A DNA stretch of 64,000 nucleotides from an uncultured Candidatus Saccharibacteria bacterium (lineage in GTDB: Bacteria; Patescibacteriota; Minisyncoccia; UBA6257; UBA9933), in the NCBI GenBank assembly GCA_964642155.1, contig CAZXNT010000001.1, positions 65,238 through 129,237 on the forward strand. Direction: 5' to 3'. Of this stretch, positions 7,479 through 60,628 are shown piece by piece; positions within the stretch are counted from its first letter, which is position 1; each line of letters starts with the position of its first letter. Made by a program: the position numbers and the translations under genes. The notes beneath the pieces were generated by a model, which was given only the letters and a program-made list of their open reading frames with translations, ran no database searches and was not told the DNA's origin.

Positions 7479-8480
7479 TCAGCTATTAGATAAAGCGATG
7501 ATTCGCTCAACGCTCAAATTCTGCGGCCTCGCATTCGGCTCAACACCGATTAATTTTAATTTTTCAATAATTTCTTCTTTGATTTTTGTCTTATTTATAA
7601 TTTGTGGTTCATTTTTATTACATTGTGCCTGCGATAGCAGATCTAATGTAATATTATTTTTATTTACTTTATCTCCCGCTATCCTATCGGATAGCGTGCT
7701 ATCCGATAGGATAGCTGTATTTTTGCCCGCAATTTCTGACATTAAATTATTTACAATCGTCTTCCTCGGCTGTTTAAAAAGAATTTTGATAAATTTATAA
7801 TATTTCTCATTATTACATTTCAACCGCGATAGCAGTTGAAATGTAACCGGCGTTAATTTAATAATCGCGCTATCCACTTTCGGCGCCGGTTTAAAATCAT
7901 TACGCGACACATAACCGATAATTTTCGGCTCAGCCCAAATCTGAACGCTAGCTGCCAATAAATTAATTTGCGGCGACTTGGCGCAAACGCGCTCCGCCAC
8001 TTCTTTTTGAATTAATAAAACAATTAATTCCGGCTTGCCTGCCCCGCTGTGCCCCGTAGTGAGTTTTGCTCTACTACTGGTGTAAGAAGCTTGCTTTTCT
8101 TCAGAGTACTCCAACCCGCCCAAAATCCTGAATAAATAACCAGTTATGTAATAGGGGATATTACCAACGATTTTATAATTCTTAATTCTGAATTCTGAAT
8201 TCTGAATTAAACGCGGAAGCACTTTCAATGCGTCACCTTCAATAATTTCTATATTTTTATCTCCCTTAAATTTTTCTTTAAAATCTTCGGCTAATTTCTT
8301 ATCTTTCTCAATCGCAATAATTCTACATTCTGAATTCTGCATTCTTAATTCTTTAGTAAGTTCCCCATGCCCGGGCCCAATTTCAATCACAACATCGCCG
8401 TCTTTCAATTCCAACGCTTCAACAATTTTCCGCAATTTCTCCTTATTTTTCAAAAAATACTGTCCAAGATAATTTCCCAT
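7479..8480 (-). CDS. ksgA: 16S rRNA (adenine1518/1519-N6)-dimethyltransferase KsgA/RsmA, carrying several in-frame repeat insertions
   Basis: Conserved motifs GQYFL, VVIEIGPGHGELT and GNIPYYIT. At 333 aa it is longer than typical KsgA. The extra segments correspond exactly to DNA repeats (two 34-bp palindromes, two GAATTCT tracts, one ATCCTATCGGATAGC palindrome). Confidence 0.85.
   Translation of the reverse strand: MGNYLGQYFLKNKEKLRKIVEALELKDGDVVIEIGPGHGELTKELRMQNSECRIIAIEKDKKLAEDFKEKFKGDKNIEIIEGDALKVLPRLIQNSEFRIKNYKIVGNIPYYITGYLFRILGGLEYSEEKQASYTSSRAKLTTGHSGAGKPELIVLLIQKEVAERVCAKSPQINLLAASVQIWAEPKIIGYVSRNDFKPAPKVDSAIIKLTPVTFQLLSRLKCNNEKYYKFIKILFKQPRKTIVNNLMSEIAGKNTAILSDSTLSDRIAGDKVNKNNITLDLLSQAQCNKNEPQIINKTKIKEEIIEKLKLIGVEPNARPQNLSVERIIALSNS
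7813..7846. repeat. 34-bp palindromic repeat TTACATTTCAAC-CGCGATAGCAG-TTGAAATGTAA. Family copies also at 7618-7651, 8515-8548, 9206-9239, 16057-16090 and 44096-44129.
   Basis: Read directly. Conserved core CTGCGATAGCAG flanked by TTACATT/AATGTAA arms. Three copies lie in-frame inside ksgA and the Mur ligase gene, three are intergenic. Confidence 0.85.
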
Positions 8481-9248: not shown

Positions 9249-11120
9249 TCAATACTCAATATAACGCTCTTCGTCGTCCAGAAAATCGCTTAATGTTTCA
9301 AATTTATCGCGATTATTACTTGTAAACTCCACTGTTTCCGGAGCGATTTCATAAAGAAAACGCGAGGGGAAATTATAGAAATTTAAAAATAATTCTTTTT
9401 TGGCGCGTGTCATCGCCACATACATCAAACGGCGCTCTTCTTCAATTTCTTCATCATTATGATATGACATTTGGTGCGGCAACAGTCCTTCATTACAACC
9501 AACGATAAAAACCGCGTCAAATTCAAGCCCTTTGGCCAAATGAATCGTCATTAAATTTATAATATTTTGAGATTTATCTACTAATAGGCGAGATTGAGAA
9601 TCTAAAATTTGAGATTTTTTTATGGCATCACTTGATTGAAAAAGCGAGATTTTTTCAAGAAAATCTTGCAAATTATTGAATTCCGAAGCATAATAAATAA
9701 GTTCATTAATGTTTTCCTCGCGTTCGCGAAAATTATCGTAATTCTTTTTTAATTGGTTTAAATATCCTGTGATTTCCAAAATAAAGCTAATTAACTCAAC
9801 TGGCGGAAGTTTTCCGGTCATTTTCGGAATTTTATCTTGAATTTCCAAAAATGGTTTTTTCAAAAAATTGGTTTTTATTCTCTCAAAACTGACCGTATCG
9901 TTCGGATTAAACGCCCAACGAAGAACCGCCACAATGTCTTTAATTTCTTTGCGTTCATAAAATTTCACGCCGCCGAAAATCTTATAAGCGATGTCGTTTT
10001 CAATAAACGCGCTTTCAATGGCGCGCGACTGCGCGTTAGTGCGATAAAGTATGGCGATAGATTTATTAGAAATTGCCTCCCTTCGGGAGGTCTCCCGCAG
10101 GGAGAGAAATTGGAAATTGGAAATTTTTTCCGCTATCCACTCCGCTTCCCCGTCTTCATCATAATGTTCAATCGCTTTTACCAAATTGCCATCGTCATTT
10201 TCCGTCCAAAGATTTTTATGCTTTTGAAATTTATTTTTGGCTATCAAAGAAGAGGCAGCCTTGATGATGTTGCCGGTTGAACGATAATTTTGTTCTAAAA
10301 AAACGGTTTTTGTTTTCGGCCAATCTTTTTCAAAATTCAAAAAAATTTTAAAATCCGACCCCCTAAATTTATAAATTGACTGTTGGTCGTCTCCGACAAC
10401 GCTTAAATTTTTATGTCCACTAGCCAATAATTTTACAAAAACATATTGCGCCGTATTTGTATCCTGAAATTCGTCAACAAGAATATAACGGAATTTTTTC
10501 TGATATTTTTCAAGAATATCCGGATGATTTTTAAAAATTTTTACCGGCTCCGTGATTAAATCGTCAAAATCAAAAGCATTATTTCTCCGCAGGGTCGTTT
10601 CATATTCCTTAAAAAGAAATTTGACAGTATCATCTTCACTCTCGGGATCGGATAATTCACTTTTAATCCGTGAAAATTCTTTTCGTAAAAATAACGGGTT
10701 AACCTCCTTCTTTTTTTCGTATTCCGAAAAATTAAGATTTTTAACAATTGTTTTTATGAGCCGGAGTGAGTCATCGCCGTCAAAAATGGAAAAATTCGGC
10801 GTTCGGCCGACAAATTTAACTTCGTTTTTTAAAATTCGCGCCCCGAGAGAATGGAAAGTGCCGATGAACGGCTGAACTTTATTTTTTATTCTTAATTCAT
10901 TATTCATTATTCTATTTTTCATTTCTTCCGCCGCCTTATTGGTAAAAGTGATGGCCACAACGCTCTCTGGATCAACTCCGGAAGCCAAAATAGCCGCCAA
11001 ACGGCTGGTTAAAGCCCTGGTTTTCCCGCTTCCGGCTCCGGCAACTATCAAAATCGTCCCCTCTAAGTTTTCCACAGCCTCCTGTTGCTTTTTGTTAAGG
11101 CTTTGATATAATGGGTTCAT
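9249..11120 (-). CDS. uvrD: ATP-dependent DNA helicase UvrD/PcrA family
   Basis: Q-motif and Walker A LNKKQQEAVENLEGTILIVAGAGSGKTRALT. UvrD blocks FTNKAAEEM and YRSTGNII. The likely start is MNPLYQSL at 11120 rather than the ORF-track 11225. Contains an in-frame hairpin element at about 10069-10127. Confidence 0.85.
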   Translation of the reverse strand: MNPLYQSLNKKQQEAVENLEGTILIVAGAGSGKTRALTSRLAAILASGVDPESVVAITFTNKAAEEMKNRIMNNELRIKNKVQPFIGTFHSLGARILKNEVKFVGRTPNFSIFDGDDSLRLIKTIVKNLNFSEYEKKKEVNPLFLRKEFSRIKSELSDPESEDDTVKFLFKEYETTLRRNNAFDFDDLITEPVKIFKNHPDILEKYQKKFRYILVDEFQDTNTAQYVFVKLLASGHKNLSVVGDDQQSIYKFRGSDFKIFLNFEKDWPKTKTVFLEQNYRSTGNIIKAASSLIAKNKFQKHKNLWTENDDGNLVKAIEHYDEDGEAEWIAEKISNFQFLSLRETSRREAISNKSIAILYRTNAQSRAIESAFIENDIAYKIFGGVKFYERKEIKDIVAVLRWAFNPNDTVSFERIKTNFLKKPFLEIQDKIPKMTGKLPPVELISFILEITGYLNQLKKNYDNFREREENINELIYYASEFNNLQDFLEKISLFQSSDAIKKSQILDSQSRLLVDKSQNIINLMTIHLAKGLEFDAVFIVGCNEGLLPHQMSYHNDEEIEEERRLMYVAMTRAKKELFLNFYNFPSRFLYEIAPETVEFTSNNRDKFETLSDFLDDEERYIEY

Positions 11121-16972: not shown

Positions 16973-17629
16973 TTATATCGCCGCTAATTCTTTATAAACC
17001 TCTTGTGGATTGCCGCTTTCCCAAATATACGAACCGACCGCTAAAATATCAACTTCGGCTTCTTGGCATAATTTCGCGGTTTCCAAATTTATGCCGCCGT
17101 CAACTTCTATTATAACATCGGAAAATTTTTTCTTCAAAAATTTTATCTTATCCAAAACCTGCGGCTGAAATTTCTGACCGGACAATCCGGGATTAACAGC
17201 GAGTATTTGCACAAAATTCCTGCTTCTATTGATAGAAGCAGATAAAAAGGGAATTAAATTTTCAACCGATGTATCGGGATTTATCGCCAACCCGATTTCA
17301 ACGCCACTTAAAACTTTTAAACTTTGAAACTCTAAAACTTTAACTGCTTCCAAATGAACAATTATTCTTCTCGCCCCAGCCTTAATCCAATCGCCAATAA
17401 CCACTAATGGATTTTCAACCATTGAATGAACTTCGAGATTAATTTTCAATTTCCAATTTTCAATTTTCAATTTCTCTAAATCTTTTAGTTGATTCCAAGT
17501 TTTATGCGCAGTAAATTTGCCATCCGCGATATCAATCTGAACCCACTCCGCGCCAAATTCTACGGCTTTTTTTAATTTTTCCGCAACGCAGGCAAAATCG
17601 CCGCAATTTATCGTCGGAATAATTTTCAT
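16973..17629 (-). CDS. rpe: ribulose-phosphate 3-epimerase
   Basis: MKIIPTINCGDFA...VQIDIADGKF and the barrel motifs. Contains an in-frame (CAATTTT)n tract. Confidence 0.8.
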   Translation of the reverse strand: MKIIPTINCGDFACVAEKLKKAVEFGAEWVQIDIADGKFTAHKTWNQLKDLEKLKIENWKLKINLEVHSMVENPLVVIGDWIKAGARRIIVHLEAVKVLEFQSLKVLSGVEIGLAINPDTSVENLIPFLSASINRSRNFVQILAVNPGLSGQKFQPQVLDKIKFLKKKFSDVIIEVDGGINLETAKLCQEAEVDILAVGSYIWESGNPQEVYKELAAI

Positions 17630-27832: not shown

Positions 27833-28366
27833 TTATATTTCTATTATTTTCCAAATATTATTAGGATAAAGACCTATTCTAATATAAATTGGCTCGTCAA
27901 TAAAAAATTCTTTTCTACCAGGAATATCATCTGATGAAAAATATCCATTTGTAGATTTTTTAAGTAAACTAAGATATTTATCTATAAATTCTTTTGTCAC
28001 TTTATTTAATTTTTCCAATTCTTTTTCCTGATATTTCTCTATAAAATATTTACTCGCCAATTCGTAATTTCCTGTTTCAACGGCGCTTATGTACATTTGC
28101 AAAGTTTCCTGCGGAATTCTACCGCCATAAGTGTCCGCCATGGCTTTTTGATAATCTTCTTGTTTAATTCTTTCCAATCTTCCAGCTAATTCTTCAACCG
28201 CTTTTTCTCCCTGCCATTGCCTAAAAAAATACCAACACCAAGAACTGGCGATATACAAAACAAAAACACCGGCGATTATCGTGAAGAATATCAATGTGAA
28301 CTTCCAAAATTTGCCTTTCGGCTTATTAATTTCGTTTATTTGATTGTTTTGATTTTGATTTTCCAT
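27833..28366 (-). CDS. small membrane-anchored protein, paralog of 26733..27266
   Basis: Same architecture. Its start codon abuts the terminal inverted repeat of MITE copy 1. Confidence 0.5.
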   Translation of the reverse strand: MENQNQNNQINEINKPKGKFWKFTLIFFTIIAGVFVLYIASSWCWYFFRQWQGEKAVEELAGRLERIKQEDYQKAMADTYGGRIPQETLQMYISAVETGNYELASKYFIEKYQEKELEKLNKVTKEFIDKYLSLLKKSTNGYFSSDDIPGRKEFFIDEPIYIRIGLYPNNIWKIIEI

Positions 28367-28513
28367 CCCTCACCCTTCAAAGATTTTCCAGTACATAAAG
28401 CTTTTTATGTACTGGATTATATTGAAGTTTAATTTTATTTTATATCTCATTCATTTTACTTATCATTCCCCTTTACCACTTTCTTTATTTCTTATCTTTG
28501 AAGGGTGAGGGAT
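28365..28513. mobile_element. MITE-like element copy 1 (20-bp terminal inverted repeats ATCCCTCACCCTTCAAAGAT / ATCTTTGAAGGGTGAGGGAT)
   Basis: Termini are identical to the copies at about 50081-50223 and 55438-55584. The interior is AT-rich with a hairpin. Confidence 0.6.
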
Positions 28514-28649
28514 TTTCAAAATAAAAAGGACGTATTCCAAAAAACACGCCCCCTCACTCAGGCATAATTAAATTATAAATCGCCACATTTTTCCGTCAAC
28601 CACTCTCTCTGTGGATAACTTATTTATCTAATACATTAAACTCTAAATA

Positions 28650-29522
28650 CTACTTACAAAGACAGAGAAATGGATGAGCGCAGTCATATACATAAGTTGT
28701 ACCACATCCAACATTTAATACAGCATTACTCTCGCCAAAATATAATGTAGCTTCGCATGTTTTTCCAATTTGAGAACATTTAGTGGCGCAACTTACATCG
28801 CGACAAGTCCATTCTGAAAAAAGAGCTCCTCCGCCTGCTGTGGTTTGTGTCGTGTTATCTGGAAATTTGAAACCGCCAGCGGTACTGTGAATTGTGCCGG
28901 CAACTTCTAATTTGCTATTTGGTATAGTCGTACCGATGCCGACGTTGCCGTTTTCTAAAATTGTTAGGGTTTTAGTAGTCACAACACTGCTTACATATCT
29001 AGTAATATCAAAATCTCCAGAAGTGCCGCTTGATCCCATCTTCCAGCCGTGGATACCTCCAGCGCCGTTATTTTGCGCAAGAAAAATCTGATTCTTAGTG
29101 CCAAGAGAAGATTCTACAATTTCTAACTTATATGCAGGCGCCGTCGTCCCAATACCGACGTTGCCATTTTTTATGGTCAAAACATCTGAGTTATTATTAT
29201 TGATGATTAAGGCGGAATCGGTGCCGAGTTTGAATAAAGTGGAAGTGGCTGATTGTCTGGATAATTTAAGCACAGAATCGGAAGAAGTGGAGTAGATTTC
29301 CATTTTAGCGCCGGGATATAAGGTACCGATACCGATATTATTGCTGGAATCGGAATATAAGGTCTGGCCAGCTGGATTGGGAGGAATAGTAGTAGGGGCA
29401 TTCCAACTAAAAACTAATTTAATAATAATTGTGATTAAGAAAAGAGCGGCGAAAAATAAAGATGAATAAAAGAAGGGTTTTTGGTGATTTTTTTTGAAAA
29501 ATAAAATAACAGCCCGCGCCAA
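28650..29522 (-). CDS. secreted repeat protein with tail-fibre-like GNVGIGTT.P..KLEV repeats and a Cys-rich C-terminus
   Basis: Hydrophobic N-terminus. Three repeats NVGIGTTAPAYKLEI / NVGIGTTIPNSKLEV. The start is read as TTG directly after the (CT)n tract. Confidence 0.5.
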   Translation of the reverse strand: MARAVILFFKKNHQKPFFYSSLFFAALFLITIIIKLVFSWNAPTTIPPNPAGQTLYSDSSNNIGIGTLYPGAKMEIYSTSSDSVLKLSRQSATSTLFKLGTDSALIINNNNSDVLTIKNGNVGIGTTAPAYKLEIVESSLGTKNQIFLAQNNGAGGIHGWKMGSSGTSGDFDITRYVSSVVTTKTLTILENGNVGIGTTIPNSKLEVAGTIHSTAGGFKFPDNTTQTTAGGGALFSEWTCRDVSCATKCSQIGKTCEATLYFGESNAVLNVGCGTTYVYDCAHPFLCLCK

Positions 29523-29526
29523 TTTA

Positions 29527-29551
29527 CTCTCTCTCTCTCTCTCTCTCTCTC
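29527..29551. repeat. (CT)12 dinucleotide microsatellite immediately 5' of the start of 28650..29522
   Basis: Read directly from the sequence (ctctct...c, 25 nt). Confidence 0.9.
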
Positions 29552-29660
29552 GGATTGTGATTATTGATGAATTTCATAATATTATAGTCACTAGCATTAT
29601 AAATTATTATTATACTCTAAATTATTTTATTTAGTAAATCTCTGTATTTTAATTTTTTTA

Positions 29661-31175
29661 TTATTTCATTCCGAAACTCACCATAAATTCAACTCCTTTG
29701 TCGGTTCGGTTAATTTTAGTAATCGGAAGATCCACATTATTAAAACCCTCGGCAATCAATTTGTTTTTAAAATCAATCGCCGCGTCTTCGCTCGGCCCTA
29801 AAGCGTTAAAAAGCAAGGGCATATCAATTGACTGGACATAAATTCTTCTGATGGAAATACTATCGCCGGCCGCCAAATTGCCGATTTTTTCAAAAAACTC
29901 CGACCACGCGGAACGCTCGGCGCTCACCTTAACGGCAAAATCTATTTTTTGGTTAAAACTTTCTATATCTTTTTTAATTTTTTCAAATTCTCCCCTTTCC
30001 GATTGCTTATATTGTCCCAAACCGGAAATTTGATTATTCAACGAAACAATGGTTTTATCTAAAAACAAATTATTAATACCGATAAAAACGATTAAAACAA
30101 CCGCCAATGTGATTAAAACGACATTGCGCCAAATTTTAATAAAATCTAAAATTCTGTGTTGGAAAAATTTTTCCTCCGTTCCTATTTTCGCAAGACTTAT
30201 CATATTGTCTTTTGAGCGCGGAGTTATTCCCCTAATGGCTGAACCTAAAACTGAAAACCAGGCTGGCTGGATATTTTCCGGCGCGACATCGCCGATTTTT
30301 TTAAGACTAAGCGGTTCAACTTTGCTGAAAGAAAAATTCTCGGACACTATTTTAACAATAGCGTCGTTTAAGCCGTAGGTTACTAAAATCATCTCGTCAA
30401 TTTGCTCTTTCCAGCGGGTATTATAAAAACTTAAAACTTTTTTAACGTCGTCAATAATTAATTTTTTGAAAAGATCCATGGGAATTTCTTTTATTTCCGA
30501 ATGGACCATTTGCCAAGGAACAAAATGGTTAAAATACAAATTGCCGTTTCTCACAAGATTAAAACTTAAACCGTTGACGCCAATATAAAATAAAATAAAC
30601 GGTTTGTTTTTACTCACATTTGCCCCAAAATCAACCGCCAATCTTGCGAGAGCCAAACCGCTGAATTCAAAAGCCACCGGCATAAAATTGGCTTCTTTTA
30701 AAGATTTATCAAATTCGTCAATCATTTGCGATTCGCTAAAAGCCCCAAGAATTTCCAATTGGTCGCGGCCATCAATCACTTCTTCGCCAATTGCCTGCCA
30801 ATCAGAATAAACCTTGCTAAAATCAGTCGGGGAAATCATTTTTAAATTCAAATCAACAGCTTCTTCAAGATTACCTTCCAACATCGGCAAATTAAATACC
30901 TGAAAATAAACGTTATTATCGGGGAAGTTAATAATAACGTTAAGCTTTTCTTTCGCTTTCGCGGTTATTTGGGAATGTATAACTGACAATGCCGATACAA
31001 ATCTTTTGTAATCGCTTATTTTACCGTCCTCAACCACTCCAGCCGCCAATTTCGCGGAATAAGAAATAAATTTATCATCTTTAATAAGACTAAATTTCAA
31101 ATCAACGTCGCTTATTTCTAAAGCGCCGATTTTCGGCTGGGGATTTAAAATTTTAAAAATTTTTTTGTAATTCAT
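29661..31175 (-). CDS. pilM: type IV pilus assembly protein, PilM-PilN(-PilO) fusion
   Basis: N-terminal actin-like PilM region (LEISDVDLKFSLIK, LGSAIRGI). Single TM helix (VVLITLAVVLIVFIGI). Coiled-coil PilN/PilO-like C-terminal part. Likely start MNYKKIF at about 31175. Confidence 0.6.
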   Translation of the reverse strand: MNYKKIFKILNPQPKIGALEISDVDLKFSLIKDDKFISYSAKLAAGVVEDGKISDYKRFVSALSVIHSQITAKAKEKLNVIINFPDNNVYFQVFNLPMLEGNLEEAVDLNLKMISPTDFSKVYSDWQAIGEEVIDGRDQLEILGAFSESQMIDEFDKSLKEANFMPVAFEFSGLALARLAVDFGANVSKNKPFILFYIGVNGLSFNLVRNGNLYFNHFVPWQMVHSEIKEIPMDLFKKLIIDDVKKVLSFYNTRWKEQIDEMILVTYGLNDAIVKIVSENFSFSKVEPLSLKKIGDVAPENIQPAWFSVLGSAIRGITPRSKDNMISLAKIGTEEKFFQHRILDFIKIWRNVVLITLAVVLIVFIGINNLFLDKTIVSLNNQISGLGQYKQSERGEFEKIKKDIESFNQKIDFAVKVSAERSAWSEFFEKIGNLAAGDSISIRRIYVQSIDMPLLFNALGPSEDAAIDFKNKLIAEGFNNVDLPITKINRTDKGVEFMVSFGMK

Positions 31176-31185
31176 ATAAAAAAGT

Positions 31186-33036
31186 TTAAAAACCAACTTC
31201 GCCGTTTTTTGAATCAAAACCGACATCACTTAATCCCTGAGTGGACACGCTCTTGGCGGAACCGGTTAACTGCAAATTAACAAATTCGTCAACGGCGCTT
31301 ATTAAAGAATCTCCGATTAATATCGGATACTTCCCGATTTGATTGGCATTTGGCAATAATTCTATTTGGAAAACAGCTTCAACCGGCTTATTAATAATGC
31401 CCTTGGTTGCCGCGATTCTATCAATAAGCCAACTCACTTCTTGCGTTCTTTCATTATAAACCGGGATAGTATTTATATTGCTTTTTGCTTCACCAATAAG
31501 CCTGACACCCGGACCAAGATACGCCCCAACACTCGCATTTTTAATATCAGTGGAATAATTCCTGACAATCCAATGAACAATAAAATTTATCGGATTATTA
31601 GCTTTCGGCGGAAGCGAACCTTTATTTAAAATTCCGGAAGCTAAAATTGAAAAATCGCGGAAATAAATTTTTGAATCAAGGGCAACGGCGCCGGCAACTT
31701 TTATTTCCCAATTTGCAAAACTAGTTGTTTTATCGGTCGCCACATAATACGGAACGGTCGGCGAAGAAATATCAGCCGCGACTTTCAAAATAAAATTTTT
31801 ATCGGACAATCTTTTAATAGGATAACTCGGCTTCACACTTATTTCAAATTCAACCGCGCCGCTTCCGCCGGGTTCAATTAAATGCAATTCTGCATTGCTT
31901 GCCGCATTCCACGTTAAAGTGTTATCGCGGGAATCAAAAGAGGCATTGGTTCTTAATTGGGAAAAATCAAACATTTCTCCGCTTAATTTCGTCTTAACCA
32001 CAACGTCTCCAAGTCCAACGTCGCTATTATTTGAATAAACAACTCTGAATTTTAAATTGCCACCCGGCAAAACATATTCCGAAGAAACGTCAAATTCAAT
32101 TTTTAAAAAAAGCGGCGACGGCGCGATATTCACCTTCGCGGATTTCTCGCTGATTTTAAAAACTTGATTTTCACCTGCCTGACCGGCGGGCAAGTAAGAA
32201 GCTTCAATGTTTGAATTGATTTCAAAAAACGTTTGATTAATGCCGGAAATTTTTCCAACAACGGCGATTTCGCCTTTCTGATTTTTATTTAAATTGCCAA
32301 TATCTAAAACATTGTCGCTAACCGCGGGGTTGGAACTTTTAACGATAAAATCTTTGGGAAAATTAAAATTCAGTTTAACGCTGGAAAAATCAAATTCGGA
32401 AATATTTGAATATTTGATTACCACTTCAAACTCTTCATTGTTTAAAACTTTTTCCGGAGCGACAAGGTCAAACTTGATGGCCGGTTCGCGGACGGAAACT
32501 TCCACGGTTTGTTTTTTTTCAAAAGTAGTTCCCAGAGCCGAGGTATAACTTACTGAAACATTGAATTTTTTAACTGACTCGCCGTCGCTAAAAATTAAAA
32601 TTTTTATTTTCTCGCTGAAACCGCTTTCTGGATTGATATCTCCGATTTCTTTTTCAAAATTTCTTTTTTCTTTGCTAATATTCAACGCCGCCACTCCTTC
32701 TGGCAATAAAACAGAAAGCCTAACGTTTTCCAAAACTTTTTTTGAACCATTGTTAAAATCCACCGCCAAATCAAACGGAACACCCATTAGAACATTGTCT
32801 TTGGCAGATGCGATAAGCGATATTTCGCGGCTGGCTGAGAAATAATTATAAAAATAAAAACTTGACACTGCCACTCCTATCGTCGCCAAAGCAACCAACA
32901 CCCAAAATATCCGATGGCTTATGAGGCTAATTTTTACGACGGGCGCGCCGGCTTTTTTGCCAAAATTTTGCGCTAAATCAAACTTTTGTTCCTTATTCCA
33001 ACTTGAACCGTAATTTTTATTATCTTCTTGGGCCAT
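31186..33036 (-). CDS. membrane-anchored protein with multiple beta-sandwich (CARDB/DUF11-like) domains, pilus-associated by position
   Basis: N-terminal TM (IFWVLVALATIGVAVSSF). Repeated V.V.Y.N beta-rich modules. Likely start MAQEDNK at about 33036. Confidence 0.45.
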   Translation of the reverse strand: MAQEDNKNYGSSWNKEQKFDLAQNFGKKAGAPVVKISLISHRIFWVLVALATIGVAVSSFYFYNYFSASREISLIASAKDNVLMGVPFDLAVDFNNGSKKVLENVRLSVLLPEGVAALNISKEKRNFEKEIGDINPESGFSEKIKILIFSDGESVKKFNVSVSYTSALGTTFEKKQTVEVSVREPAIKFDLVAPEKVLNNEEFEVVIKYSNISEFDFSSVKLNFNFPKDFIVKSSNPAVSDNVLDIGNLNKNQKGEIAVVGKISGINQTFFEINSNIEASYLPAGQAGENQVFKISEKSAKVNIAPSPLFLKIEFDVSSEYVLPGGNLKFRVVYSNNSDVGLGDVVVKTKLSGEMFDFSQLRTNASFDSRDNTLTWNAASNAELHLIEPGGSGAVEFEISVKPSYPIKRLSDKNFILKVAADISSPTVPYYVATDKTTSFANWEIKVAGAVALDSKIYFRDFSILASGILNKGSLPPKANNPINFIVHWIVRNYSTDIKNASVGAYLGPGVRLIGEAKSNINTIPVYNERTQEVSWLIDRIAATKGIINKPVEAVFQIELLPNANQIGKYPILIGDSLISAVDEFVNLQLTGSAKSVSTQGLSDVGFDSKNGEVGF

Positions 33037-33041
33037 TTTAT

Positions 33042-33614
33042 TTATATTAATAATAATTGATTTTGAGCAATTTTTCCAGCGCATTTGACGCATAAAAAAA
33101 TATGCTCGGGTTTTAAAAAATAATCGGCTCGCGGATTATCGCAAACAACGCAAGAAGCGTGTTCCGGGTCAAATCCCAAAATTTTCAACAAGCCGCGATA
33201 AATTACCCTATCTTCAAGGCCGGCCAAATCGGCGCTGAAAATTTTTTTAATCGCCTGCCAAAGACGCAAATCCTGATGAAGCTCAAAAGTCATTTCATTG
33301 ATAAATTGCGCGATATTCAAAAATTTCGCGAGATTTTCCGGATTTTTTTCCAATTGAGAACCGTCTTCAATAGTCAACGCATCAACCACCTGAAATCCCT
33401 GCCTGCCGGCAGATAAGGCATTCTTCTCAATCAACCGACAATTGACAAAATTAAGCGGCTGAAGATGGCTGTTGAGTTTGGAAGTTATTTTTCTCGCGCT
33501 TTTCGCCATGGCAATCACTTTACCGAAATCGCGGGTATATAAAGTAATAATGGCATCCAATTCTTTGCTTATTTTATTGTCGAAAACAAACGCCTCAGTA
33601 TAATGTTCAAGCAT
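33042..33614 (-). CDS. recO: DNA repair protein RecO
   Basis: OB-fold N-terminus and C-terminal zinc finger CVVC...CVKC. Confidence 0.6.
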   Translation of the reverse strand: MLEHYTEAFVFDNKISKELDAIITLYTRDFGKVIAMAKSARKITSKLNSHLQPLNFVNCRLIEKNALSAGRQGFQVVDALTIEDGSQLEKNPENLAKFLNIAQFINEMTFELHQDLRLWQAIKKIFSADLAGLEDRVIYRGLLKILGFDPEHASCVVCDNPRADYFLKPEHIFLCVKCAGKIAQNQLLLI

Positions 33615-43404: not shown

Positions 43405-44826
43405 TTATATTATTACATTGTGGGCTTTTTTATTTTCCAAAATTTCCTCCACGATTTTTTTTTCGTCCCACGGAATTTTTTTATTGCCCGCAACGCACAT
43501 TGACGACTCCCCTCCCTTCCCCGTTAAAATAACAACATCTCCTTTTTGCGCCAAAAACAGCGCCTTTTTAATCGCTTCTCTCCTATCTATAATTTCATAA
43601 ATTTTGGAAATTGGAAATTGTCTGGCTTCGCCAGATCTCGCGAAGCGAGAGAAATTGGAAATTCCAGATTTTATTTCCGATAAAATCTGGCTGGGTTTTT
43701 CGTCATATGGGTCTTCATTCGTCAAAATAACTTCATCGCAATATCGCGTTGCTATTTCGCCCATTTTCGGCCTTTTCCATTTATCCCGTCCTCCGCCCTG
43801 CGCCCCCAATAAACATATCAACTTTGAATTCTGAATTCTGAATTCTGAATTCTGAATTGTTTGATATACTGCTTCCAAACTCACCGGTTCATGGGCGTAA
43901 TCAACAATCACGGTAAAATCACTTACCTTGATAATCTCCATTCTGCCTGCCGGCGATTTTGCCTGCGCCAACGCTTCTTTTATTTTTTCAATCGGGATAT
44001 TTAGCGACAAAGTAACCGCAATCGCCGCCACGGCATTATAAACATTAAATTCCCCAACTAATAGTATTCCAATAATTAATGGTATTTCAATTTTATTACA
44101 TTGCATCTGCGATAGCAGATGTAATGTAACTTCGAATTTTGTTTTATCTGAATATAATTTAATATTTTCTACTTCTAAAATTTTATTTACTTTTGACTTT
44201 TGATTTGAACTTTTGACTTTTATTCCGTATCCGTATTTATTTTTAATTTCCGGTTTTAAAAAATATTCAACGTTTTCATCGTCTAAGTTATAAATCCCAA
44301 CACCATTTTTCTTTCGTGCCACTCTTTCAAATAATTTTATTTTTGCGTTCCGATAATTTTCAAAACCGCCGTGCCGTTCAATATGTTCAGGCGATAAATT
44401 TGTAAAAACCGCGATATCATAATCAATAAAACGATGTCTGTATTGCAAAATCCCCTCTGAAGAAGTTTCTACCACCGCGTATTCGCATTTTTCCGCAACC
44501 ATTTGCCTCAGCAATTTTTGCAGCTGAAACCTGCCGAGCATTGTCTGCTTTGATTCGTTTTTCCATTCCCGCTCGCCTATCCGAAAATCCACCGTGGTTG
44601 CCATTCCGACTTTATGGCCGCTGAAATTCAAAATTTGAGCGATTAAATTGCAAGTGGTGGTTTTTCCTTTGGTTCCGGTAACACCGATGACTTTCATTTT
44701 GTGAGACGGAAAACCATAAATCAAGGCTGAAAAAAATGCCAGAGAAAAATGATAAATCGGCTGGCCGAGCCGATATAAAAATTTCGGAATAATATGTTTT
44801 TCAAAAAATCTTAAAATTTTCTCCAT
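43405..44826 (-). CDS. murE: Mur ligase family protein (MurE-like), with in-frame repeat insertions
   Basis: VIGVTGTKGKTTT P-loop, NLSPEHIERHGGFENYRNAK and a C-terminal GGGRDKWKRP Mur-ligase motif. Contains a 34-bp palindrome, a (GAATTCT)4 tract and a double-hairpin element. Confidence 0.7.
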   Translation of the reverse strand: MEKILRFFEKHIIPKFLYRLGQPIYHFSLAFFSALIYGFPSHKMKVIGVTGTKGKTTTCNLIAQILNFSGHKVGMATTVDFRIGEREWKNESKQTMLGRFQLQKLLRQMVAEKCEYAVVETSSEGILQYRHRFIDYDIAVFTNLSPEHIERHGGFENYRNAKIKLFERVARKKNGVGIYNLDDENVEYFLKPEIKNKYGYGIKVKSSNQKSKVNKILEVENIKLYSDKTKFEVTLHLLSQMQCNKIEIPLIIGILLVGEFNVYNAVAAIAVTLSLNIPIEKIKEALAQAKSPAGRMEIIKVSDFTVIVDYAHEPVSLEAVYQTIQNSEFRIQNSKLICLLGAQGGGRDKWKRPKMGEIATRYCDEVILTNEDPYDEKPSQILSEIKSGISNFSRFARSGEARQFPISKIYEIIDRREAIKKALFLAQKGDVVILTGKGGESSMCVAGNKKIPWDEKKIVEEILENKKAHNVII

Positions 44827-53113: not shown

Positions 53114-54355
53114 CTACTTAACACTAGGAGGAAAACCTGTATTTGGCAGTTTTATCATTGCTGAGAGTTGAGCTTGAAGTAATTGTACTAATTGCTGCAT
53201 CAGAGGAATGAGCTGTTGTTTAATCTGGTTAATCTGGGCTAAAATCTGCTGGTTTGATACAGGTGTCGGTGTCGGTGTCGGAGCTACTGTTAGTACAACC
53301 ACAGGAGTTGAGGTTGGTGTTGGTGTTGGGGTAGGGGTAGGGGTAGGTGTTGGTGTTGGTTGGGTAACATTAACCACCACACTGTTCGACGCACCAGCAC
53401 AATTTATTGAATACGTTGTATTTGATGTCGGTGAAACGCTAACACTTCCTGAAATAGCATTTCCTGTTGAGAAGTTGGTACCAGAACAACTTGCCGCATT
53501 TGAGCTTGACCACGATAGGGTTGACGAATTACCACTTATGATTGAGGTTGGATTTGCTGAAATTGTTGCTGTTGGGGTTGGTGGTGGAGTAACGGCAACA
53601 ATTGGCTTGGTAACAGTGTTTGCATCTAACGTAGCTGCGGTCTGTGCGAGTGCCCTGCCGTTTAGCGTTGCACCGGTGTTCAGCACAATTGCTGTTTGAT
53701 CCAATATATTTCCATTAAAGACAGCTGTCGTTCCAAGTGTCGTTTGGCCAGCAACCTGCCAGAAGATGTTAGCGGCCTGCGCACCGCCACTCAGGACAAC
53801 CTGCACAGCGGAACTCACAGTGAGATTTTGCGCTATCTGAAATATCCAAACATCATTGGCACCGCCCGAGAGAGTGACATTCGTTGGTATTGTCACGCCG
53901 GTACTCCATTTATAAAGTCCCGGAGCTAATGTCATTCCGCCAATATTTCCCGCACCCAATTCAGTCGCAGTCGGATTTGTTCTCCCCGCGGCATCAGTGT
54001 ACGCGGTTTCCATGTCACTTACCGCTGTAGTCATTGTAGCTGGAGTAGGAGCCGTATAGTCGGCTGCATATACTTTTCCGGTTACTATGGCTGATGTCGA
54101 AAATGTATTCGAAGCGTCCAGTATTAATCCGAATCCAGTTATGGCAGTCGCGGCGATTGGGCTCACTCCAATATCTCCAGTAATTGAGGTATTTCCGGTG
54201 GTTGAGATCCCCGACTTCGTTAGAATCACGAAATTGCCTGCTGATCCGAGATTTACTGTCGCTGGACCTGCAGCAAGCACAGCCATTGGCCCGGTGAGAC
54301 CAAACATAAATGCAAGACCTAATACAACCACTAAACCCTTGTTAAATTTTTTCAT
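53114..54355 (-). CDS. surface protein with DUF3494 (ice-binding-like) domain, Ig-like domain, PT linker, Gln-rich coiled coil and C-terminal LPNTG
   Basis: LGSAGNFVILTKSGISTTGNTSITGDIGVSP matches the DUF3494 signature. (PT)n linker. The ORF ends KLPNTGFPPSVK. Confidence 0.7.
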   Translation of the reverse strand: MKKFNKGLVVVLGLAFMFGLTGPMAVLAAGPATVNLGSAGNFVILTKSGISTTGNTSITGDIGVSPIAATAITGFGLILDASNTFSTSAIVTGKVYAADYTAPTPATMTTAVSDMETAYTDAAGRTNPTATELGAGNIGGMTLAPGLYKWSTGVTIPTNVTLSGGANDVWIFQIAQNLTVSSAVQVVLSGGAQAANIFWQVAGQTTLGTTAVFNGNILDQTAIVLNTGATLNGRALAQTAATLDANTVTKPIVAVTPPPTPTATISANPTSIISGNSSTLSWSSSNAASCSGTNFSTGNAISGSVSVSPTSNTTYSINCAGASNSVVVNVTQPTPTPTPTPTPTPTPTSTPVVVLTVAPTPTPTPVSNQQILAQINQIKQQLIPLMQQLVQLLQAQLSAMIKLPNTGFPPSVK

Positions 54356-54454: not shown

Positions 54455-54500
54455 ATTATAGTTTACCCCCCCCCCCGATAATTTTGCAATGTGTATTAAG
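54455..54500 (-). promoter_or_regulatory. candidate promoter with a G12 homopolymer (C12 on the plus strand, 54466-54477) between a TTGCAA -35-like hexamer and a perfect TATAAT
   Basis: Minus-strand read: TTGCAA aattatc G12 taaac TATAAT, about 95 nt upstream of the start of 53114..54355. Confidence 0.45.
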
Positions 54501-59248: not shown

Positions 59249-60628
59249 TTGGGGATTTTGGCATTTTTGCCTTTTGATTATTTCTGGCCATTTGGTTTTT
59301 TTTATCTTGTTCCGCTTTTTATTTTTTTAATTAAAGAAAAAAGTTTATGGAAATTATTGGCCGGCGGTCTTGTTTTTCGAGTAATTTTTAGTCTCGGAAC
59401 GGTTTATTTTACCTTAGAACCAATTCTCTGGCTACTTTCAATCCCGCTTTTTTTAGGCCTTCCAATTTCTGTTTTTTTTCTTAAAAAATTCTTAAACCGT
59501 TTTAATAATTCCTTAATTCTTAATTCTTACTTCTTAATTCTATCTTTGCCGTTCCTCTGGGCTTTTTTTGACCATTTTCAAGCCCGTTTTTCGCTCTTCC
59601 CGACTTATATAATGACTGCCGGCAATTCATTGGGCTCATCGCCATTTCTCGGACTGGCTTCAATTAGCGGATTAATTTCACTTACTTTTTTTGCGGCTTT
59701 AATAAATACTTTAATCGCTATTTTGATTTTAAAAATAAAATCACAAAATACCAAAATCATAATTCTTAATTCATTATTAGTAATTTTTATAATAATAAGC
59801 GCTTGGCAAATTTCCCAACTTCAACTTCAAAAAAATTCTGAAACCTATGAAAATCTTGAAAATTCTTTTAAAATCGCCGCTGTTTCCGTTAATGAAAATT
59901 TCAACTATTCCGATTTAGAAAAAATCAAAAATAAAATAATAAACAACGAAATTGATTTCTTAATCCTGCCTGAAGATATTTTTAATAACTCGCCCCAAGA
60001 ATTAGATCTAAAATTTTGGCGCGACTTTGCTCAAAAAATAAACGCTGGTCTTTTAGCAACCGGCGACCGACAAGAAAACAACAAACGCTATGATTCAAGC
60101 ATTTTAATGGATAAAAACGGTAAAATTGCCGATATTTACGACAAAAACCGCCTGACTTTTATAGGCGAATACTGGCCTTTCGGCAAATGGATTCCCTTCT
60201 ATCTTAACTGGTTAAAAAAAACTCAGCCGGAAATCAAAAATTACGCGGTTTTTAATTTTAAAAATGCTTATTCTTCCGGCAATCAAAAACTGCTAACCGT
60301 AAAATCAAAAAATGGAGATCTTAAATTTGCTTCTCTGATTTGTTTAGAAATTCATTATCTCCGCGATTTGAAAAATTATAAAAAAATGGGAATACAACTC
60401 TTTATTAATCCCACCAGCAACCGTTGGCTGGATTTAGGTTTGTACCATTTTTTATATCTGACTAATAATTTAAGAAAGATTGAATCTGTTTGGCTAAAAG
60501 CGCCGATTGTTTCAAGCGGAGTTAAAGATTATGCTGGAATTATTGAGCCGACAGGCATTAGCCGCTTGATTAATTTTGAAAATCAAAATAAAAATTACGG
60601 ATTATTTCTGGGAGAAGTTAGGTATTAA
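59249..60628 (+). CDS. lnt: apolipoprotein N-acyltransferase-like protein (multi-TM N-terminus plus CN-hydrolase domain)
   Basis: Six or seven N-terminal TM helices. Nitrilase-fold E/K/C triad candidates (LPEDIF, DKNRLTFIGEYWP, ASLICLEI). Confidence 0.5.
   Translation: MGILAFLPFDYFWPFGFFYLVPLFIFLIKEKSLWKLLAGGLVFRVIFSLGTVYFTLEPILWLLSIPLFLGLPISVFFLKKFLNRFNNSLILNSYFLILSLPFLWAFFDHFQARFSLFPTYIMTAGNSLGSSPFLGLASISGLISLTFFAALINTLIAILILKIKSQNTKIIILNSLLVIFIIISAWQISQLQLQKNSETYENLENSFKIAAVSVNENFNYSDLEKIKNKIINNEIDFLILPEDIFNNSPQELDLKFWRDFAQKINAGLLATGDRQENNKRYDSSILMDKNGKIADIYDKNRLTFIGEYWPFGKWIPFYLNWLKKTQPEIKNYAVFNFKNAYSSGNQKLLTVKSKNGDLKFASLICLEIHYLRDLKNYKKMGIQLFINPTSNRWLDLGLYHFLYLTNNLRKIESVWLKAPIVSSGVKDYAGIIEPTGISRLINFENQNKNYGLFLGEVRY

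Follow-up and report, generated by a model that had tools for sequence, protein, structure and literature searches.

Contingency loci have mostly been discussed for host-adapted pathogens. In Helicobacter pylori the genes oipA/hopH, hopZ, sabA, sabB and babB carry CT repeats in the 5' region coding for the signal peptide, by which the reading frame is set ON or OFF, and the opa family of Neisseria comprises multi-copy mosaic genes with CTCTT pentamer repeats in the region coding for the leader peptide. In members of the Candidate Phyla Radiation (CPR) diversity-generating retroelements (DGRs) employ a reverse transcriptase to rewrite codons in the ligand-binding domain of surface proteins. Here we describe a gene predicted to encode a membrane-anchored fibre protein in a stretch of 64,000 nucleotides (referred to as the window) on contig CAZXNT010000001.1 of an uncultured Candidatus Saccharibacteria bacterium. 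The gene carries a perfect dinucleotide repeat near its 5' end and is probably subject to slipped-strand translational phase variation. The mechanism is classical, the lineage and the protein family are new: in full-text searches of a paper library we found no report of simple-sequence-repeat phase variation in genes of Patescibacteria, CPR, Parcubacteria or Saccharibacteria.

Similar to the H. pylori adhesin genes the locus combines a CT/AG repeat unit with an N-terminal export or anchor leader, a reading frame presumably set ON or OFF by slipped-strand mispairing, and the occurrence of both ON and OFF alleles among strains. It differs from them in originating from Patescibacteria of environmental groundwater, in being known from sequence, and in encoding a membrane-anchored homologue of trimeric fibres instead of a β-barrel outer membrane protein. 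Moreover, the repeat encodes a presumably cytoplasmic (RE)n tail and not a part of a cleaved signal peptide. With the opa genes it shares the organisation as a multi-locus family, in which each copy has its own leader repeat, a conserved 5' part and variable exposed parts, as well as signs of recombination between the copies; the repeat unit, however, is a dimer and not a pentamer, and the variable part corresponds to a whole exchangeable C-terminal tip domain.

Further counterparts are the mosaic adhesive trimeric (MAT) fibres of Bdellovibrio, described in PMC10769870 as chimeric fibres for prey recognition and handling with S74 and non-S74 tips, among them Bd2133, Bd3182, Bd1334 and Bd2439 (PDB 8OND, 8OJN, 8OML, 8OL4). 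Repeat-mediated phase variation is not mentioned in that paper, the listed matches to the word "phase" referring to attack phase, phase contrast and crystallographic phasing. The window protein resembles the MAT fibres in its homologous beta-helix shaft and stalk motif, in the mosaic build of its family with conserved N-terminal parts and swapped tips (S74-chaperone and non-S74), and in being carried by a bacterium living on other bacteria. Unlike them it carries a transmembrane anchor at its N-terminus, and with about 309 as against about 1000 aa it is much shorter. As with the DGRs of CPR bacteria, hypervariation would act on putative surface or attachment proteins, but here a microsatellite would switch the whole protein on or off, and no reverse-transcriptase gene was detected near the fibre locus.

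The dinucleotide tract and the reading frame of the fibre gene

The original prediction, which was based on the DNA sequence of the window, had pointed to a (CT)12C tract immediately 5' of the TTG opening a 290-codon open reading frame (ORF). The tract was confirmed in the sequence: CTCTCTCTCTCTCTCTCTCTCTCTC extends over positions 29527-29551 of the plus strand and reads G(AG)12 on the coding strand. It represents the sole period-2 array of the window according to Tandem Repeats Finder, in agreement with a regular-expression search, the chance expectation for (CT)6 being 0.02 per window as derived from dinucleotide-preserving shuffles. On the minus strand TATAATATT is followed by ATG AAA TTC ATC AAT AAT CAC AAT CCG, (AG)12, TAA, a single A and TTG GCG CGG. 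The ATG (29577..29575) encodes MKFINNHNPRERERERE, i.e. MKFINNHNP(RE)4, and its frame is terminated after 17 codons by the TAA (29526..29524) directly 3' of the tract. The distance between this ATG and the TTG of the 290-aa ORF (29522..29520) amounts to 55 nt, and the leader and the ORF are therefore 1 nt out of frame, exactly as the frame count of the original prediction had indicated. The stop codon it had placed at 29574-29576 was found as well, a TGA by which the frame of the 290-aa ORF is closed upstream.

The addition of one CT unit had been expected to fuse the leader to the ORF through an (RE)n stretch. In silico, 13 units indeed result in a fusion of the form MKFINNHNP(RE)kSKLARAVILFF... 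with a length of 309 aa, and the same applies to 10 and 16 units (307 and 311 aa). With 9, 12 or 15 units translation ends at the TAA after the tract, and 8, 11 or 14 units lead to a dead-end product of 44-48 aa. Since a second, independent assembly of the same strain (Logan, SRR13723396, contig L043) also contains 12 units, the tract of the window is not an assembly artefact.

The probable start codon

In the public annotation the gene is represented by a 290-aa product which starts at the TTG and begins with MARAV (P0001). Homologues from other groundwater metagenomes begin with MK[FL][IT]NNHNP(RE)nSK..., those of the type MKL[IT]NNHNP with (RE)3-5, and the leader is present in the full-length homologues P0005 (N-terminus MKLINNHNPRERERERERESKS...), P0006 (MKLINNHNPRERERESKS...), P0007, P0009, P0010, P0012 and P0014 (MKLTNNHNPRERERERESKL...) and P0015 (MKLTNNHNPRERERESKL...); P0003 begins with MIQKHFSNHNPRERESKLARHVV.... 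Because the full-length homologues start with the leader and (RE)n, the ATG leader together with the GA tract is regarded as the real N-terminus, and the in-frame homologues do carry at their N-terminus the (RE)n peptide that had originally been deduced from the tract. Codon by codon, the 27-nt leader is preserved, with synonymous AAT/AAC exchanges and leucine encoded by CTC, CTA or TTA, even between lineages whose 5' untranslated regions can no longer be aligned.

The TTG, on the other hand, is not conserved. The matching codon is TTA in L039 (...SKLARHVV...), the closest relative downstream of the tract, CTC in the group of loci with an MKLT leader (MKLT group) and TCA in L002 and L014, and in these relatives no other canonical start codon was found before the membrane anchor. 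The original prediction had furthermore interpreted the GAGAG run of the tract as a Shine-Dalgarno (SD) site for the TTG. This interpretation was rejected, as SD-like motifs were detected at only 4 of 52 genes of the window and the TTG is not conserved; most genes have an ATG preceded by A/T-rich sequence. Given the rarity of SD-like motifs in the genome, their lack before the ATG of the fibre gene is normal here. A leaderless mRNA was considered as an option, with a TATAAT located 3 nt before the ATG. The sequence ATTTACTAAATAAAATAATTTAGAGTATAAT of the promoter-like site is unchanged in five syntenic loci (window, L001, L002, L014, L030), whereas the neighbouring intergenic DNA differs.

From these sequence comparisons we conclude that the ATG at 29577 most plausibly represents the genuine start of the fibre gene. 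The TTG probably is not a genuine start and the TTG gene model the product of a gene caller confronted with an out-of-frame tract; P0004, which derives from an allele with n = 9, was likewise called from a TTG. Thus, the data support the view that the tract lies within the true 5' coding part of the fibre gene and that the window allele is out of frame (OFF).

Tract length in related loci

Related loci were collected by scanning species-representative genomes and metagenomes for the DNA pattern AAY CAY AAY CCN (AG)>=5, independently of gene calling and, in the genome collection, without the leading AAY. Most of the genome matches (L003-L006, L008-L013, L015) and the metagenome matches L019, L023 and L028 were chance matches in unrelated, mostly GC-rich genomes and were discarded. 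Duplicates (L025, equal to L002; L031, 100% identical to L001 over 4193 nt) and two contigs cut inside the tract were removed.

The remaining 17 non-redundant loci contain between 8 and 17 repeat units. Eight of them are ON, i.e. n = 1 mod 3 (16 units in L002 and L014; 13 in L017, L018, L022 and L033; 10 in L030 and L035). The other nine are OFF and occupy both wrong frames, six with n = 0 mod 3 (15 in L016 and L034; 12 in the window and L020; 9 in L001 and L021) and three with n = 2 mod 3 (17 in L024, 11 in L027, 8 in L029). L039, which was obtained by protein search and stands outside this set, is ON with seven units. Including it, ten distinct tract lengths were observed (7, 8, 9, 10, 11, 12, 13, 15, 16 and 17 units). 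The reading of the tract as a contingency switch for a surface structure, as put forward in the original prediction, is supported by this range of unit counts and by the presence of both ON and OFF frames.

The tract is uninterrupted in all related loci despite a DNA difference of about 13% between lineages, and the leader tracts are the only dinucleotide repeats of at least six units in 164 kb of related DNA. The length of the tract varies far more than the sequence around it. L014 and L030 originate from neighbouring wells of the same aquifer; over 2937 nt their identity amounts to 99.42%, five positions are mismatched, and the single gap is the tract (16 versus 10 units). Tracts of 9, 13 or 17 units were found at loci that are 99-100% identical in 300 nt of flanking sequence. 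The MKLT group occupies all three frames.

Intact reading frames behind out-of-frame tracts

When the tract was set to n = 1 mod 3, complete ORFs of 266-317 aa were obtained in six OFF loci (window, 309 aa; L001, 317 aa; L016, 305 aa; L021, 310 aa; L024, 269 aa; L027, 266 aa), and the ORF of L020 was open as far as the contig end. L029 and L034 are shortened remnants of the cassette with 49-53 aa. Between the window and L001, both of which are OFF, the first 125 codons after the tract show a nonsynonymous divergence (dN) of 0.09 and a synonymous divergence (dS) of 0.73, corresponding to a dN/dS of 0.124. Such a value between two OFF alleles excludes long-term pseudogene decay, and with purifying selection throughout the divergence of the two loci (dN/dS 0.12) the OFF states are therefore recent or transient.

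The two remnants (L029, 4342-4490; L034, 271-430) comprise the leader, the tract and the beginning of the anchor up to ...KPFFYAKWQS*; the next 1.8 kb are unrelated sequence which both loci share. They look like products of recombination at the conserved 5' cassette.

Membrane anchor and homology to MAT fibres

The encoded protein comprises, in this order, the leader with (RE)n, a basic patch (KKNHQK), a hydrophobic helix of 22 residues, the motif SWN(A/P)PT..PPNPAGQTLYSD, repeats of the type GNVGIGTT.P..KLEV and a Cys-rich C-terminal domain. The 290-aa product has 1091 homologues at E <= 1e-3, whereas a search with the N-terminal 144 residues returned four matches only. Neither Pfam nor NCBIfam contains a family matching the window protein, and its Cys-rich tip has no Pfam match. 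In a phmmer search against PDB sequences residues 115-243 matched Bd2133 of Bdellovibrio bacteriovorus (8OND) with an E-value of 7.3e-18, including the nearly identical stalk motif AGTIHSTSGGIKFPDGSVQTTA. A profile built from 48 homologues matched 8OND with an E-value of 1.2e-31 and additionally 8OJN, 8OL4 and 8OML. An AlphaFold2 monomer model of the window protein (predicted local distance difference test score 70.5) was compared by Foldseek, in which all seven matches at E <= 0.001 were MAT fibres of Bdellovibrio, at template modelling scores that are low, a monomer model being set against chains of trimers.

Judged by these similarities the window protein is predicted to be a MAT-like fibre, short and anchored in the membrane, that belongs to a cellular organism. 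Its location at the cell surface is suggested by the N-terminal anchor, and the description as a tail-fibre-like surface protein in the original prediction agrees well with the anchor and with the homology to MAT fibres. Since KKNHQK precedes the anchor, the (RE)n leader presumably resides in the cytoplasm according to the positive-inside rule.

The proposed switch and alternative explanations

We consider slipped-strand translational phase variation of the MAT-like fibre gene to be the probable explanation. Slipped-strand mispairing at replication would add or remove GA units, presumably in a reversible manner as known for long perfect dinucleotide repeats. With n = 1 mod 3 (7, 10, 13 or 16 units) the ATG leader would be joined via (RE)k-SK to the anchor, the shaft and the tip, and the fibre would be made. 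With n = 0 mod 3, as in the window (n = 12), translation would end at the TAA directly past the tract, and with n = 2 mod 3 about 20-30 codons past it; in both cases no anchored fibre would be expected. The repeat itself, which corresponds to (RE)2 to (RE)5 when in frame, is presumably tolerated because it forms a short charge-neutral, cytoplasmic tail before the anchor. Reversible high-frequency switching within a clone and the loss of the protein in the OFF state would follow from this model. It likely amounts to a stochastic on/off control of individual recognition or adhesion fibres of the cell surface, for which the protein homology suggests a role in cell-cell recognition or attachment.

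Several observations weigh against this interpretation. In the MKLT group some of the tracts that differ in length belong to paralogous loci and are not alleles. The window strain has 12 units in two assemblies and L001 and L031 both have nine, with no heterogeneity seen at the consensus level. In the sub-lineage with the MKF leader all alleles (n = 12, n = 9) share one OFF frame in the arrangement TAA-A-TTG, which might permit termination-reinitiation, so that OFF may stand for reduced rather than zero expression, and which could even constitute a stable upstream ORF (uORF) arrangement.

Taken to its conclusion, the last point would mean that the annotated TTG model is right for the MKF lineage: the leader would be a uORF, the fibre would be produced by termination-reinitiation, changes by three units would be neutral and expression would be constitutive or modulated. 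In accordance with this explanation both independent MKF alleles (window, n = 12; L001/L031, n = 9) end at a TAA 1 nt before the TTG, the dN/dS points to selection on an ORF whose two alleles are both "OFF", and the TTG was picked by the NCBI and ENA gene callers (P0001, P0004). However, L039 is fused in frame and has TTA in place of the TTG, other lineages have CTC or TCA with no alternative start before the anchor, and all three frames are present in the MKLT group. Taking furthermore into account that two alleles share a frame by chance in one of three cases and that the genome seldom uses a TTG start or an SD site, this explanation seems unlikely.

It appears more improbable still that the gene is a frameshifted pseudogene, in which the loss would be irreversible and the variation of the tract a consequence of relaxed selection. 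The stop after 17 codons in the ATG frame of the window allele and the truncated remnants L029 and L034 would fit this scenario, but the reading frame past the tract stays open for 290 codons and appears constrained at a dS as high as 0.73. Furthermore, a change of the tract alone repairs six OFF loci to full length, about half of the loci are in frame as compared to one third expected under free drift, and the repeat is perfect at every locus.

A recoding event during expression, either by slippage of RNA polymerase on the GA tract or by ribosomal frameshifting, would render the length of the tract in the DNA indecisive. Long homopolymers are known to induce transcriptional slippage. For dinucleotide tracts, however, slippage is not established as a mechanism of recoding, neither a conserved stimulatory structure nor a slippery heptamer was found 3' of the tract, and in the n = 0 mod 3 frame a stop codon follows the tract immediately, which makes this explanation very improbable. 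Finally, a sequencing or assembly artefact is hardly conceivable: dinucleotide repeats are prone to stutter in the polymerase chain reaction and the contigs L026 and L032 end in or near the tract, but more than 20 contigs, obtained in independent projects and with independent assemblers, carry the same leader and tract, the tracts do not exceed 34 nt and are well inside the read length, and both the Logan and the NCBI assembly give n = 12.

Family architecture and genomic context

The window is chromosomal, as it contains genes for RecO, GAPDH, RpiB, a SpoU methylase, SecDF, PNPase and five tRNAs, and it carries a single cassette-bearing locus. The cassette had no match in a viral contig collection and there is hence no sign of a phage-borne cassette. 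In L014 (Patescibacteria group bacterium H52-bin056) the neighbouring proteins are 87-88% identical to those of the window. Upstream, the window, L001/L031, L002/L025 and L014 have in common the genes for a 635-aa protein and a distantly PilM-like 522-aa protein, to which recO is added on the longer contigs L025 and L031; L030 is too short upstream to show the two genes. Downstream, a gene for a 177-aa protein is present in the window, L001, L002/L025, L014 and L030, with the exception of L031.

The 522-aa gene (29661-31229, minus strand) encodes a distant PilM homologue (TIGR01175, E-value 6e-7, below the curated cutoff; PilM of PDB 3JC8, E-value 3e-7), and the 635-aa gene (31186-33093, minus strand) has a weak DUF11 match. 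The conserved synteny suggests that the fibre may be connected with a type IV pilus-like machinery.

The cassette of the MKLT group, extending from about -100/-200 to about +450, shows 90-99% identity between contigs and occurs in at least four different upstream contexts. In the family one conserved 5' cassette, made up of leader, tract, anchor and roughly the first 150 residues, is followed at several genomic loci by at least seven unrelated C-terminal tips, including two Cys-rich kinds, a third Cys-rich one in P0012, tips ending in ...LVCQKD and ...RIQWTPLGI, an S74 chaperone (L024, Peptidase_S74, Pfam E-value 3.4e-19) and a 358-aa form ending in ...MRAKR. L002 and L014 are 98.1% identical without gaps over 3311 nt up to position +739 of the gene and have unrelated tips beyond it. 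L022, which is full-length, and L029 share 4.4 kb of upstream sequence at 98.7% identity and diverge just past the tract. In related fibres encoded at another locus, after scpB (P0008/L037), the starting ATG is located nine codons ahead of the anchor, and both the leader and the repeat are missing; the leader-repeat switch is therefore an add-on module of some family members.

The samples SRR13723393, SRR13723396 and SRR13723397 contain proteins identical to those of the window, and in the Logan contigs of this strain the fibre gene is interrupted. L043, which comes from the upstream side and includes the tract, ends (position 7961) in the first GNVGIGTTAPA repeat. L041 (SRR13723397) and L042 (SRR13723393), reached from downstream, break within the GNVGIGTT repeat short of the tract and begin with the last 104 codons of the gene remaining. 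These breaks point to an internal repeat or to a population-level mosaicism at the shaft-tip junction.

The features of the locus are compiled below. The 284-nt spacer 3' of the fibre gene (28366-28650, minus strand) contains a strong promoter-like site (TTGACG-16-TATAAT, 28599..28572), directly followed by the terminator-like hairpin (14 bp, 28555..28524) and then by the next ORF; no Rfam family matched within this spacer.

Table 1. Positions of the features identified or predicted at the fibre locus of the window
Feature	Position	Strand	Basis and remarks
Promoter-like site TTTACT-18 nt-TATAAT	29609..29638	-	Consensus scan; about 30 nt upstream of the ATG
Leader reading frame	29524..29577	-	Translation and homologue leaders; ATG 29577-29575, MKFINNHNP, (RE)4, TAA 29526-29524
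Dinucleotide tract	29527..29551	.	Perfect repeat; sets the reading frame
TTG, database-annotated start (P0001)	29520..29522	-	Probably Leu codon of ...SKLAR...
Fibre gene body, 290 codons	28650..29522	-	ORF list; open in the frame that n = 1 mod 3 leads to
N-terminal transmembrane anchor FFYSSLFFAALFLITIIIKLVF, preceded by KKNHQK	29409..29474	-	Read from the sequence; AlphaFold2 helix, residues 16-38
Beta-helix fibre shaft, GNVGIGTT.P..KLEV repeats and stalk motif AGTIHSTAGGFKFPDNTTQTTA	28794..29180	-	phmmer, profile search, Foldseek
Cys-rich C-terminal tip (…CRDVSCATKCSQ…CLCK)	28653..28811	-	Tip comparison; one among several alternative tips of the family
Terminator-like hairpin and T-run	28524..28555	-	Consensus scan, prediction only; downstream of the fibre gene

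Other repeats

The sole long homopolymer of the window is a C11 run on the plus strand at 54466-54476 (G11 on the minus strand). It separates -35-like (TTGCAA / TTATCG) from -10-like (TATAAT) hexamers and lies some 100 nt upstream of an ORF (54355..53114, minus strand). The encoded protein of 413 aa is apparently secreted and combines a TP-rich linker with an LPNTG motif at the C-terminus. This ORF is followed by a sortase gene (Pfam PF04203, on the identical Logan contig). The G11 run is a candidate for phase variation via the promoter spacer of a putative sortase-anchored surface protein. The Logan contig of SRR13723396, probably from the same strain, has G11 too.

Moreover, 7-nt tandem repeats of four to five copies were detected at 8177-8208, 8319-8352, 10877-10923, 17441-17473, 43825-43858 and 59506-59541. 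Their unit mostly is AATTCTG or a close variant, and they lie inside apparent housekeeping ORFs which, judged by motifs only, encode a KsgA-like methyltransferase, a Mur-ligase-like protein and a UvrD-like helicase. The AATTCTG-type repeats are read in all three frames, giving peptides such as IQNSEFRIQNS, and the gain or loss of a single unit would cause a frameshift.

In a contig of Candidatus Colwellbacteria (L007, positions 513-531; DAIDBC010000055.1) ATGATGGCGGCACAACCC is succeeded by a short (GA)5 tract. The downstream ORF, whose frame would be reached by the loss of one GA unit, encodes a membrane anchor and an ...AWTNPSLSPP... motif. This single case with its short tract may represent a distant analogue of the (GA)n switch in another lineage of the Parcubacteria.

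Implications for CPR bacteria

Little is known of how CPR bacteria and Patescibacteria recognise their hosts and become attached to them, and the majority of these organisms cannot be cultured. The fibre locus provides a concrete candidate for such an attachment, as it combines a membrane-anchored homologue of the prey-recognition fibres of the predator Bdellovibrio with exchangeable tips and a presumed stochastic switch. Automated annotation assigns wrong starts (TTG) to such genes or truncates them when the tract is out of frame. The state of the switch can be read from metagenomic reads, by which ratios of ON to OFF could be followed across samples, size fractions and host blooms without cultivation.

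More tentatively, and as a possibility that we rate below even chances, CPR episymbionts may possess a "phasome" of several loci for MAT-like host-recognition fibres, each joining the same promoter-proximal cassette of leader, (GA)n switch, anchor and proximal shaft to a tip of its own, with independent switching by slippage and with tips exchanged by recombination at the shared cassette, of which the G11 promoter repeat could be a second member. If this were true, it would provide combinatorial bet-hedging over the host surfaces to which these bacteria may attach.

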